Assembly (NCBI GenBank): GCA_964612145.1 | Contig: CAZTBP010000013.1 | Span: 1-64,000 of the forward strand | Origin: an uncultured Ignavibacteriales bacterium | GTDB lineage: Bacteria > Zixibacteria > MSB-5A5 > GN15 > FEB-12 | DNA: 64,000 bases | Direction of reading: 5' to 3' | In this document: positions 52,997-55,771 of the stretch, piece by piece | Position numbering within the stretch: position 1 is the stretch's first letter | Layout of the letters: every line of letters starts with the position of its first letter | Translations under genes and position numbers: made by a program | The notes under the pieces: generated by a model | Databases searched by the model: none | Told to the model about the DNA's origin: nothing | The model's input: only the letters and a program-made list of their open reading frames with translations

Positions 52997-55771
52997 TTAC
53001 CGCACAGTGGCCGGCGTAGTCTGACAATTCAACGGCAGACCACCCCGGAAGAGGAAGTCCACAAAATACGTCAGGTCCGAAACATTAATGCCGCCATCAC
53101 CATTCACATCACCTGCTGTCTGATCCGGTGACGGTCCCCCACGGAACAGGAAGTCGACCAGATACGTGAGATCGGACACATTTGGCCCCTCACCATTCCC
53201 ATCCATATCACCGCAGATAAACGCTGATTCCACTGTGATCGAGATAATTTCTTCATCGATCAAACTGCCGTCATCCGCCACGAACTGAATTCCGCTGTGC
53301 GTGCCCGTATCGCTTTCAGTCGGCGTCCACTCAACCGTGGCCGTGTACCGCAGCAACCCGGCATCCCAGCCGTTCTCGGTCAGCGTCGCACCGGACGGTA
53401 GATTCTCCGTCCAGAACATGACAATGTCGCCGTTCTGGTCGTGGGCAGCAATCTCAAACGTCAGCAGTTGTCCGGCTGCCGCTGTCTGATCCCCAATCGG
53501 GTCGAGCACCGGCGCTACATTGCCCTCGGACACACTAATAGTCACCAGCTCACTATCGGCCAGCGAACCGTCAAAGGCACTGAACAGCACATTATGATCG
53601 CCGACATCACCGGACTGCGGCGTCCAGTTAAAATCGGCCGTCCCATCGCCATTATCGGCAAACGTAGCACCCGCCGGTAACGAATCGACCAGAAGTTGCG
53701 GAACATTACCATCCGGATCGGAGCCCGTTATCGTAAGATTCAGATTATTGTCGACTACGGCGTTCTGCGCCCCTATCGGATCAAGTACCGGTGCCCGATT
53801 CACGTTGTTTACCGTGATCGCCACTATTTCCGTATCCGCCGCCAATGAATCATCCTCGGCGATAAAATACACACTGTACTCACCCGATTGCTCGAACGCC
53901 GGCGTCCAGTCAAACGTCCCGGTCCCATCACCGTTATCAGCAAACGTCGCTCCGTTCGGCAGCGAATCGGCCCGTAGCGTCGGCGTCGTCCCATCAGGAT
54001 CCGTCGCACTGACCGTGAAATTCAACAGGCTGCCCTCGTCGACTGTTTTCGGACCGATCGGATCAATGATCGGCGCCGAATTTCCCGCTATCGGCGTTAC
54101 CGTGACTGTCTGGCTGTTCATCATTTCCGGCGTTGATTTGCCGTTGGCCGCCCAGAGATCATACAGCGTCTGTCCCCAGTGATCGGTCACGTTCTCATCG
54201 CGGAGAAATTCAACATATTCTTTCGTTGTTGTCTGGTAATAGATCGTCACTTCAACCTCGGCAGTCGCTCCCGGAAGCAAATACTCGGTATAGTCCCAAT
54301 ACTGGCCATCGGCATAGGTATAGTCCACCGGCGGCGACTGGATGCTATCAAACGCGGCATTGGTGAATCCTCGCGGGGGAATACGGTTGTCACTGAAGAT
54401 CGTATCGTTCAACACAAAATGGAACCCCGGCCCGGCCGAAAAACCGACCACCGGCGCGAGCGTGTTGGACAACCCCGGCTTAATCTCGTAAATCTTTACA
54501 TCGGCATCGCGCGTGAGAACCGCCGTCGAAGTATCGTACGCCCCCGACTCGTACAGCAGCGTCCCCCCGGAACCATACGCCCGCACGTTTATCCAGATCC
54601 GACGGCCTTCGGGGTAACCCGACGGCAACTTGTGGCCGGTCTCGTTGGTCACTTTAACACTGCATCGGTGCTGCGAACCATCCGGCGTCACACTGACATC
54701 GAGCGACGTGGCCAACTGAAGCATCCGCCGAGCCCGGACGATCCCCGAATCAAGCGCATCGGTTGGTGTCTCGCCGGGAAAAACGTCGTCTACAATTCTC
54801 GGTATGAACGTATTGCCGCCGGTCATGTCATGAATCGCCAGATCGTCACGCAATGGCGCATCGTTCTTATCGCAACCGTGACCGGTGGTATCACGCATGT
54901 GACAGTCCTGGCAGCTGCGAACGGTATCGAGATTGCCCCCGAACTGTGGTGCGTACACGCCTTCGAGTGTGTTGTACGCCGATACCTTCCACTCCGAAAA
55001 CGTCCGCTCAATCGGGAACATCGCATACGGATTGGCCGAATCCGGATGCGGCGCATCAAACGTATTCGGAACGTACTTCCCATTGGCATCCTTGCTGAAC
55101 ACCGGATTGCTCACGTCATGACAAGTACCGCAGAGATCCGATTCACTGTGAAACGGCGAATAGAGAAAAGCGTGGCGAGCCACTGTCTCCGCATACGGCC
55201 CGCGTTTGGGATTAGCATCGGAATCAACTACATAGCCGCCGTTGGACTCCCCCTCCGGTATCGCTGTCAATGTCGCCAGGTAAGTCTGATCAAAATTGTA
55301 TGTCGTCGCTGTATAAATCGAGTCATCCGGATACGGGTTCTCACCGACATGAGCCGGCTTCACAGCACGGTGACAGAAATCGCACAAAATCGATTCGCGA
55401 TCGTCTGCCGTTAACGCCGAACCGTCCGTCGGCTCCGAACGCCCTTCCAGCCAACCCTTCGGTGAATGGCACCGAATACACAGATCGCCCGATCCCGGCG
55501 CATCCTGTTCGGCAATCGTCATACAGGCGAAAAACAGCGGATCGCGCGCCGCCTGGGACATCATGCTGCCGCGCCAGTTAAAGCCCGGCTCGACCGGCTG
55601 ATCGTAGCCGCCATGACAGTTTTCACAGCGATCGGGTTTTTCAAGTGTTCCGGATTGGTTCGGCTGTGAACCGGGCAGGAACATATCGTTGATTGTTGTC
55701 GGCGCCTGGGCGAAACTTCCGCTCGCCTGAGTGACAATCAGCCACAAAGCGATTGGTATCAAGCGACGCAT
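52997..55771 (-). CDS. Extracellular multihaem c-type cytochrome (at least 5 CxxCH) fused to three Ig/cadherin-like repeats and a C-terminal tandem dockerin-like module
   Basis: Signal peptide [23 protein letters not shown] (start 55771, GGAGG RBS). Haem motifs CENCH, CIRCH, CDFCH, CGTCH and CQDCH. Three about 95-aa repeats ([15 protein letters not shown]..., [17 protein letters not shown]..., [15 protein letters not shown]...). C-terminus [19 protein letters not shown]...[29 protein letters not shown]. Confidence 0.8.
   Translation of the reverse strand: [924 protein letters not shown]

Follow-up and report, generated by a model that had tools for sequence, protein, structure and literature searches.

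An exported pentahaem cytochrome on an immunoglobulin-like stalk, possibly a tethered redox enzyme of the c552/MccSep fold family

Multihaem cytochromes found outside cells are usually read as wires of extracellular respiration. Is this the right reading for a cytochrome that carries its haems at the far end of a long stalk? We address the question for one gene from an uncultured bacterium of the Zixibacteria lineage. The gene occupies positions 52997-55771, on the minus strand, of a 64,000-nt stretch of contig CAZTBP010000013.1 (assembly GCA_964612145.1; the whole stretch is called the window below), and its 924-residue product has a mass of about 97 kDa. An earlier note on this DNA had seen in the product a candidate terminal reductase or electron conduit displayed on a scaffold. 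Its N-terminal part (residues 24-557, hereafter the head) is widespread and highly conserved, yet unnamed, and the only characterised member of its fold family is an enzyme. We found that the head is one conserved module of about 530 residues, pentahaem plus immunoglobulin (Ig)-like, which belongs to the c552/MccSep/ExtKL (PHC) fold family and is not a generic electron wire. On balance, and by a narrow measure of confidence, we read the protein as a redox enzyme of the PHC family that is tethered outside the cell.

The head is a large member of the PHC fold family

The protein carries exactly five CxxCH motifs (CENCH at residues 49-53, CIRCH at 98-102, CDFCH at 130-134, CGTCH at 214-218, and CQDCH at 287-291), where the earlier note had counted at least five in the N-terminal 350 residues. 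None of 20,000 shuffled versions of the protein held two or more CxxCH motifs, and the five are conserved in about 300 homologues. A motif scan of the 924 residues found no CxxCK. The head is composed of the following domains and sites:

54716..55702, minus strand: pentahaem domain of the PHC module, residues 24-352, with CxxCH motifs at 55613-55627, 55466-55480, 55370-55384, 55118-55132, and 54899-54913
55559-55570, minus strand: Met71 (in GSMM), probable axial ligand, in the pentahaem domain
54989-55015, minus strand: P-I-E-R-T-F-S-E-W, at the place of the haem-ligating Cys of relatives, in the pentahaem domain
54101..54715, minus strand: Ig-like beta-sandwich of the PHC module, residues 353-557 (from profile, structure model, alignments, and conservation)
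54593-54646, minus strand: loop with invariant His380 and with Tyr386 at the position of MccSep Sec325, in the Ig-like beta-sandwich
54368-54391, minus strand: D-N-R-I-P-P-R-G, in the Ig-like beta-sandwich

Modeling of the full-length protein with AlphaFold2 (AF2) used a shallow alignment and gave the haem domain a predicted local distance difference test (pLDDT) score below 50. The head was re-run on an alignment of 31 diverse sequences and reached a pLDDT of 92.2 and a predicted template modeling score (pTM) of 0.89. In this model, which consists of the protein chain only and contains no haems, a helical haem domain (residues ~24-352) is followed by a beta-sandwich (residues 353-557). Disorder around the haem motifs, which the earlier note had raised as a possible objection, fails as an argument because all five motifs lie in a domain modeled at pLDDT >90; they also align with those of 5ZE8.

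This Protein Data Bank (PDB) entry, the low-potential pentahaem cytochrome c552 of Thermochromatium tepidum, is built of a five-haem domain and an Ig-like domain and was the sole PDB match of the model in Foldseek at E <=0.001 (E 8.5e-16, target TM 0.68). The family profile detected it among PDB sequences at E 8e-11, and hhalign of the profile against 5ZE8 gave a probability of 98.8% (E 7.5e-17) with the five CxxCH motifs in register one-to-one. The GH..P(T/S)G..R loop and the H314-type His align as well. In contrast to the head, 5ZE8 is a 435-residue, periplasmic-type soluble chain with no stalk or anchor; the head is about 150 residues larger, including an insertion of about 45 residues between haems 4 and 5. 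As is typical of PHC proteins, the haem domain of the head is followed by an Ig-like beta-sandwich that bears an N-x-x-G-H-x-x-P-(T/S)-G loop. Profile scans found no Pfam or NCBIfam model that names the head family; the only matches, to Cytochrome_C7 and to the ExtKL model, were sub-threshold, the latter (NF040886) scoring 29.8 bits with a match confined to residues 271-409, where the cutoff is 250 bits. We conclude that the head is a "large" member of the PHC fold family with five c-type haems in a compact core, on which the Ig-like beta-sandwich packs, supplying the invariant His380 and a loop to the haem domain.

The PHC family comprises small (sPHC, ExtKL-like) and large (lPHC, Gsu2801-like) members, both listed among cytochromes with a possible five-coordinate catalytic haem; Gsu2801 is given no function there (PMC11976967). 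The papers found to mention Gsu2801 deal with expression, regulation, or comparative work. The PHC proteins of cable bacteria and Geobacter share the pentahaem and Ig-like domains with the head, and the cytochrome domain of lPHC is likewise expanded; however, they are periplasmic, some are fused to truncated haemoglobins, and none has been described with a dockerin tail or with a tail for a type IX secretion system (T9SS). PtdA, reportedly a homologue of T. tepidum c552 whose C-terminal part is a beta-sandwich, is encoded beside a porin in the ptdABCDEFG cluster (bioRxiv 10.1101/2023.11.21.568154). By description, it resembles our protein in its pentahaem and beta-sandwich parts, and a porin gene adjoins here too, but the ptd genes form a conserved cluster with tetra- and decahaem proteins, whereas the head family has no conserved neighbours. 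The haem core of the head also partly superposes on NrfA; however, the rest of the fold differs, and the head has neither a CxxCK Lys-ligated haem nor a match to Pfam Cytochrom_C552, so that it does not belong to NrfA. The fold and the family are thus already known from 5ZE8, MccSep, and the PHC proposal and represent no new principle. What appears to be undescribed is the exported clade, its altered active-site residues, and its pairing with T9SS or dockerin-like tails.

Conserved residues point to an altered active site

The polysulfide reductase MccSep of Geobacter sulfurreducens (PDB 9WT8-9WTC) is a tetramer of the periplasm. Among its five haems, haem 2 is ligated by Cys239; this ligand and Sec325 (selenocysteine), located on a loop of the Ig-like domain, are both essential for activity (PMC13510729, 2026). 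For residue comparison, MccSep residues 208-347 and most of the 5ZE8 sequence were recovered from alignments, and conservation was counted over 307 aligned members of the family, which come from many phyla. At the level of sequence, MccSep is only marginally related to the head (E 1.7 for the family profile against PDB sequences, in addition to the low ExtKL score). Nevertheless, MccSep and ExtKL share with it the five-haem cap and the Ig-like stem, the Ig-domain loop of the active site is in register, and so is, in MccSep, the conserved His before the haem-domain helix, H314.

The MccSep peptide that carries Sec, VEMTNHAGHSIPDGUPTPNR, aligns with the Ig-domain loop of the head such that Sec325 corresponds to Tyr386, and to Ala in 5ZE8. 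Across the 307 members this position is occupied by Tyr (280), Phe (15), or His (8), and never by Cys. The loop with the Cys ligand reads DNPTQCC in MccSep and DNPQGVPLC in 5ZE8; in the head, the 45-residue insertion breaks it. The Cys position, traced via Cys241 of 5ZE8, aligns with P253-I254-E255-R256, with Ile254-Glu255 standing in place of the Cys itself. The family alignments contain no conserved Cys outside the CxxCH motifs, and the co-occurrence of C83 and C300 is weak (both in 123 sequences, C300 only in 99, C83 only in 19, neither in 57). The third substitution concerns the His of the W-x-G-S-M-H motif of 5ZE8 and MccSep, which becomes Met71 in the head. Since the pattern at this position (Met in 292 and His in 3 of 307) fits an axial haem ligand, we read Met71 as a probable one, and one haem is probably His/Met-ligated. 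The PHC family offers a clean comparison of active sites: Sec/Cys in MccSep, Ala/Cys in 5ZE8, and Tyr/Glu-Arg in this clade.

Further residues of the head are conserved to a similar extent. His314 and His380 are each present in 307 of 307 members, His200 and His451 in 298 each, and His208 in 274. Arg100, within the CxRCH motif of haem 2, is found in 296, Glu255 in 281 (Gln in 15), and Arg256 in 297, while Arg390, Arg391, Asp461, and Arg463 are nearly invariant; T257, E260, and E388 are also among the polar residues conserved in these homologues from several phyla. So many invariant polar residues without a part in haem attachment would be expected in an enzyme.

Could the head carry out the MccSep reaction outside the cell, as an extracellular polysulfide or selenite reductase? 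The same architecture of five haems and an Ig-like stem, the aligned active-site loop, and hosts from sediments, where S0 and polysulfide would be available, are consistent with this. However, both catalytic hallmarks are missing, with Sec325 replaced by Tyr386 and the Cys239 loop by P-I-E-R-T, and no other Cys is conserved. The U325A, U325C, and C239H variants of MccSep are nearly inactive (PMC13510729), and the NCBIfam ExtKL score lies far below its cutoff. We therefore hold this reading to be very unlikely, and MccSep-type chemistry was ruled out as a candidate on its two defining residues: judged by the aligned positions of Sec325 and Cys239, the chalcogen chemistry of the Sec/Cys pair cannot be the reaction of this head.

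A separate observation concerns the first haem site. Three homologues (P0026, P0091, and P0114) carry C-x-C-H (e.g., SCNCH) instead of CxxCH at this site, and haem 1 in members of this type may be attached unusually or lost.

The head is widespread, and its C-terminal tail varies by lineage

A word-indexed search with the head returned at least 7,963 relatives (clusters at 90% identity), the best 120 of which shared 61-76% identity over 89-100% of the query. An exhaustive search of 50%-identity representatives gave 2,752 proteins, 565 of them at E <=1e-30. Identity of the head across phyla is 45-76%. Its hosts include Zixibacteria, Ignavibacteria, Eisenbacteria, Planctomycetota, Verrucomicrobiota, and cultured Bacteroidota (Mangrovibacterium marinum, Aestuariivivens sediminis, and Gilvirhabdus luticola); the family is testable, since cultured hosts exist. 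The named relatives of stalk and head are mostly Zixibacteria, and the same architecture recurs in Zixibacteria-type metagenomic proteins; a search for similar architectures in genomes of Zixibacteria and other groups had been proposed in the earlier note. The hosts are both aerobes and anaerobes; among them are Aestuariivivens, Luteolibacter, and Planctomycetales, known as aerobic heterotrophs, which argues against a dedicated anaerobic metal reductase.

While the head is constant among orthologues, the C-terminal tag varies by lineage. In Ignavibacteria, most Zixibacteria, Eisenbacteria, Krumholzibacteria, Latescibacteria, Fibrobacteres, and Bacteroidota, the tail is a type A sorting domain of T9SS, which in most cases follows a PKD or FN3 spacer. 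In Planctomycetota/Phycisphaerae, the tails are short dockerin/EF-hand-like pairs ending in G-C(-P), and Verrucomicrobiota and Kiritimatiellota have another C-terminal domain. He_PIG repeats followed by a dockerin-like tag are found in a subset of Zixibacteria-like sequences, including the protein studied here. Por_Secre_tail (PF18962), present in many orthologues, was not detected by Pfam at the C terminus of this cytochrome. However, two other proteins of the window bear T9SS sorting domains, so the genome uses both devices, T9SS cargo and the dockerin-like tag:

29922-30893, minus strand: protein with a T9SS sorting domain (Por_Secre_tail, 32.6 bits; Pfam)
43020-44465, plus strand: beta-helix protein with FlgD_ig/Por_Secre_tail (Pfam)

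Our literature search for multihaem cytochromes or pentahaem proteins together with T9SS (type IX secretion) found no paper that links them, and a wider search gave nothing relevant.

In many variants of the family (loci L022-L078, e.g., L026 at 9230-11884), the N terminus is extended by about 260 residues, which include a Big_7 Ig domain and a sixth CxxCH. Two loci stood out: the 2,930-residue product of L071 (3110-11902) has 10 CxxCH and appears to consist of two tandem heads, and in L073 a pair of paralogues is encoded by adjacent genes.

Relatives of the N-terminal part of T. tepidum c552 (P0275-P0297) were all, 23 of 23, called as short open reading frames (ORFs) of 66-186 residues. In L083 (3001-4160), the rest of the gene lies in another frame, and a fusion of the two between ..EVSD and QLQGP.. 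restores a 5ZE8-like protein (E 9e-197). Of the other short c552-type cases, L084 ends at the contig end, and L085 (1501-2763) lies on a contig with fragmented neighbour genes. The split c552-type genes are probably the result of assembly error rather than programmed frameshifting.

A three-domain Ig stalk and a dockerin-like tag probably tether the head

The ORF of our cytochrome spans 52997..55852 on the minus strand and is the sole sensible long ORF in the region. Its likely start is the ATG at 55771, with which the starts of homologues coincide; these also have an equivalent hydrophobic N terminus ahead of a conserved PTT(I/L)ND motif. The two 5' features below were read from the sequence, whereas the C-terminal ones were delineated as indicated:

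55778..55782, minus strand: Shine-Dalgarno-like GGAGG, 6 nt 5' of the ATG at 55771
55703..55771, minus strand: signal peptide, residues 1-23, Sec-type, without lipobox Cys
53798..54085, minus strand: He_PIG/Big_9 (cadherin-like Ig) repeat 1, residues 563-658 (Pfam, repeat alignment, AF2)
53516..53797, minus strand: He_PIG/Big_9 repeat 2, residues 659-752 (Pfam, repeat alignment, AF2)
53222..53515, minus strand: He_PIG/Big_9 repeat 3, residues 753-850, with diverged signature (Pfam, repeat alignment, AF2)
53024..53221, minus strand: dockerin-like module, residues 851-916 (sub-threshold in Pfam; PDB dockerins, AF2)
52997-53023, minus strand: 8-residue tail and stop codon, following the dockerin-like module

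The earlier note had described three repeats of about 95 residues with a conserved signature. The repeats are indeed 94-98 residues long and 52%, 43%, and 43% identical in pairwise comparison, and Pfam recognizes three stretches each of He_PIG (62.4 bits, cutoff 24) and Big_9 (46.4 bits, cutoff 23.6); only in repeat 3 has the signature diverged. In the full-length AF2 run, they are beta-sandwiches at pLDDT 85-95. From typical domain size, the three acidic Ig repeats would form a stalk of about 290 residues and ~10-13 nm. Together with the signal peptide and the five haem motifs, these repeats bear out the proposed secreted multihaem cytochrome with cadherin/Ig-like repeats.

The C-terminal tag has two DxNxDG-type Ca-loops, each followed by a helix SDLTY(L/F)VDFLFRGG, and is bracketed by Cys853 and Cys916; AF2 modeled it as helical at pLDDT 82-91 in the full-length run. 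It thus shows the duplicated loop and helix of type I dockerins, with loop 2 canonical and loop 1 containing one extra residue. Pfam Dockerin_1 (PF00404), however, scores 15.4 bits, below its cutoff of 22.9, and PDB dockerins match at E 0.006-0.6, so that "dockerin-like", as the tag had been called, is a fair name while formal membership is lacking. The clearly homologous tag of a neighbouring protein at 63191-63985 reaches 34.2 bits, above the cutoff. Four unrelated proteins of the window, including the cytochrome, share the tag, which is alignable over ~70 residues with common helices and flanking Cys. The other three, identified by tag alignment, are:

38998-42351, minus strand: protein of 19 thrombospondin type 3 repeats
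44642-46519, minus strand: M43 metallopeptidase with PKD
63191 to beyond 64000, minus strand: DUF7901 protein, which runs off the window

The tag is a general display device in this genome. It resembles type I and non-cellulosomal dockerins in its duplicated Ca-loop and helix at the extreme C terminus of secreted proteins; in contrast to them, it is sub-threshold in Pfam and Cys-bracketed, has a distinctive helix, and occurs in what is probably a Gram-negative bacterium of FCB type, with T9SS cargo as well.

As the earlier note had stated, the partner cohesin is not apparent: no cohesin (PF00963) was found among the scanned, longer ORFs of the window. A search with stalk and tag matched mostly Ig-repeat proteins named as Zixibacteria. 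Two proteins from Joint Genome Institute (JGI) metagenomes, P0392 and P0377, each join a cohesin to three He_PIG repeats and a dockerin within a single chain, above Pfam cutoffs, and their repeats are ~40% identical to the cytochrome stalk. They could self-assemble head-to-tail, and they show that He_PIG stalks of this kind serve cohesin-dockerin systems. As a partner for the cytochrome tag they were rejected: their dockerins are of another subtype, without the flanking Cys and the LFRGG helix, which makes them a lead and not the partner. Dockerins without a clear role are common outside cellulosomes, and a surface component other than a cohesin may just as well be what the tag binds.

Taken together, the signal peptide, the T9SS or dockerin-like tails of orthologues, the tag shared within the window, and the confidently modeled stalk point to an extracellular, tethered location. 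A location outside the cell, along with a proposed evolutionary link between c552-type pentahaem proteins and the AvECN nanowires (cited in PMC11976967), could also suit a polymerizing, nanowire-like cytochrome or a passive electron store, with heads stacking into filaments in the way proposed for archaeal nanowire subunits related to T. tepidum c552. However, a bulky C-terminal stalk and anchor and the variable tails of orthologues are unexpected for a filament subunit, and we obtained no evidence of oligomerization. This reading seems to us the most improbable of those considered.

The neighbourhood of the gene is not conserved

The cytochrome gene is flanked by a divergent gene upstream and a convergent one downstream, and it has its own terminator. 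Thus, it appears to be a stand-alone, monocistronic unit. Within a short distance lie genes that could belong to a respiratory chain; they are listed here together with the terminator:

52950..52975, minus strand: intrinsic-terminator-like hairpin, 11-bp stem with 9 GC pairs, then the T-run TTTTTTAT, 22 nt past the stop codon of the cytochrome gene
56126-57577, plus strand: tetratricopeptide repeat (TPR) and BBP2 (OmpL-like) beta-barrel porin, divergent from the cytochrome gene (profile scan)
59164-62493, plus strand: HmcB/HybA-like iron-sulfur protein (341 bits), HmcC/HybB-like NrfD-family membrane subunit (305-340 bits), and 385-residue cytochrome with 13 CxxCH and an HmcA-like C terminus (profile scans)

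The genes at 59164-62493, in the order B-C-A and without a molybdopterin subunit, plausibly encode a quinone-interacting complex of the Hmc/Nhc/Ohc type. The earlier note had placed an NrfCD-like quinol module about 3 kb away; the distance is 3.4 kb, on the opposite strand, with the porin gene and a gene for an AI-2E transporter in between. The intergenic region between porin and cytochrome genes (55772-56125) is 354 bp long and AT-rich.

To see whether these neighbours recur, we surveyed 80 loci from species-representative genomes, clustering ORFs within 10 kb by all-against-all BLAST and searching them by phmmer with the window neighbours. Apart from the cytochrome and its shadow ORFs, no ORF cluster was present in more than 5 of the 80 loci. 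Relatives of the window porin and of the 13-haem cytochrome were found by phmmer in none of the 80, and an HmcB-like and an HmcC-like relative in one each. Porin and periplasmic multihaem cytochromes are thus not co-located across these loci in the way of Mtr-, Pcc-, or Ext-type conduits. In three cultured Bacteroidota, a Luteolibacter bin, and an Ignavibacteria bin, Pfam scans identified unrelated housekeeping genes as neighbours. Since the survey shows no conserved neighbour, the closeness to the Hmc-like module is most likely coincidental on this genomic evidence. An operon link to this module and to the porin was rejected on the same ground, and the functional link implied earlier finds no backing, given also the terminator and the divergent and convergent flanks.

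The sole recurring neighbour was a Crp/Fnr-family regulator (cNMP_binding and HTH_Crp_2), encoded directly upstream in the same direction in five loci of different phyla (among them L005, L007, L012, and L014). In the window itself, 55772-56125 contains no TTGAT-N4-ATCAA site with up to 2 mismatches, and window-wide counts of this site match chance. Control of this gene by FNR/CRP was therefore rejected, despite the five loci.

These data bear on the view that the protein is the end of an electron-transfer chain, in which electrons would pass from the quinone pool through the Hmc-like complex, periplasmic cytochromes, and the porin to the cytochrome and then to Fe(III)/Mn(IV) oxides, humics, or S0/polysulfide. 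Such a chain is what a multihaem c-type cytochrome with extracellular targeting would suggest, and it would make use of the adjoining porin gene and of the HmcB/HmcC-like pair and 13-haem cytochrome nearby. PHC relatives adjoin porins in two other systems (ExtI/ExtKL and PtdB/PtdA), MccSep is a respiratory reductase, and the Crp/Fnr-type regulator of the five loci fits as well. The survey of 80 loci, however, speaks against it, as do the monocistronic gene and the aerobic lineages among the hosts. The head has only five haems in 530 residues and many invariant polar residues not tied to haem, and the three Ig domains would part it from its anchor by too far for direct hopping from the outer membrane. 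The main rival to the reading set out below, a terminal reductase fed by unlinked conduit proteins, we therefore consider rather unlikely.

A proposed model of the protein as a displayed redox enzyme

How, then, might a tethered redox enzyme of PHC type work? The head would act outside the cell, with catalysis, by analogy with MccSep, at haem 2 next to the Ig-domain loop. Glu255-Arg256, Tyr386, and Arg390/391 would take the positions of the MccSep Cys and Sec. From this site, the other haems would lead to the protein surface and serve as a wire for electrons or as a store or buffer, and the probable His/Met haem may form part of this chain at a higher potential than in the all-bis-His/His-Cys relatives. 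The stalk would hold the head away, while the Cys-bracketed Ca-loop module would tether the protein to a surface partner. As substrates, we can only guess at peroxide-type or other small inorganic species, at oxyanions of sulfur or nitrogen, or at redox-active solids or polymers. Electrons might, again as a guess, be exchanged with extracellular partners or diffusible carriers and not through a dedicated outer-membrane conduit. Several things fit an enzyme with extracellular electron exchange: an Arg-rich pocket that also holds Glu and Tyr, no conserved supply partner, the display architecture, and the aerobic lineages.

A displayed enzyme also fits better than an outer-membrane conduit because the head sits at the far end of a ~290-residue stalk from its anchor. 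Of the two roles named in the earlier note, that of a terminal reductase is possible, although as the weaker reading, while the scaffold layout agrees less well with a conduit.

Several observations weigh against the enzyme that we favour. The residue at the position of Sec in the wider family can be Y, F, H, M, D, or W, and because of this variation Tyr386 may not be catalytic. There are six conserved candidate ligands (M71, H200, H208, H314, H380, and H451) for five haems; six-coordination of all five is therefore conceivable and would speak for electron transfer alone. MccSep, the relative that has been characterised, is a reductase that draws its electrons from the cell, and in this genome an Hmc-like quinone-interacting complex and a porin gene lie close to the cytochrome gene. 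As for the tether, the Dockerin_1 score below cutoff and the lack of a cohesin among the scanned ORFs of the window tell against a classical dockerin.

A broader proposal, which we put forward tentatively and regard as possible but doubtful, is that pentahaem enzymes of this kind form a very large, exported clade in FCB- and PVC-group bacteria. After periplasmic maturation, they would be exported by T9SS in most lineages or displayed by dockerin-like tags, and with a Glu-Arg plus Tyr site and one His/Met haem they would perform an extracellular redox reaction without a dedicated conduit; they would also be the first recognised haem-c cargo of T9SS. The reaction might, for example, be an oxidation of minerals, humics, or polymers driven by peroxide, or a conversion of reactive sulfur or nitrogen species. 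If the head is an extracellular redox enzyme, the "iron-reduction potential" of Zixibacteria, Ignavibacteria, Eisenbacteria, and Planctomycetota genomes may be over-called.

Other features of the window

Two further features were observed. The window encodes an encapsulin shell protein (Linocin_M18, 273 bits) at 24539-25342 on the minus strand. In the region 1-11821, there is a step in GC content near 10 kb, from 0.46-0.49 to 0.52-0.62; a phage-type integrase lies next to it, at 10709-11821 on the minus strand, and the low-GC side of the step at ~10 kb encodes GrpE-like, HSP70-like, VWA, PA-IL lectin-like, and PEGA proteins. Positions 1-11821 may represent an integrated element.

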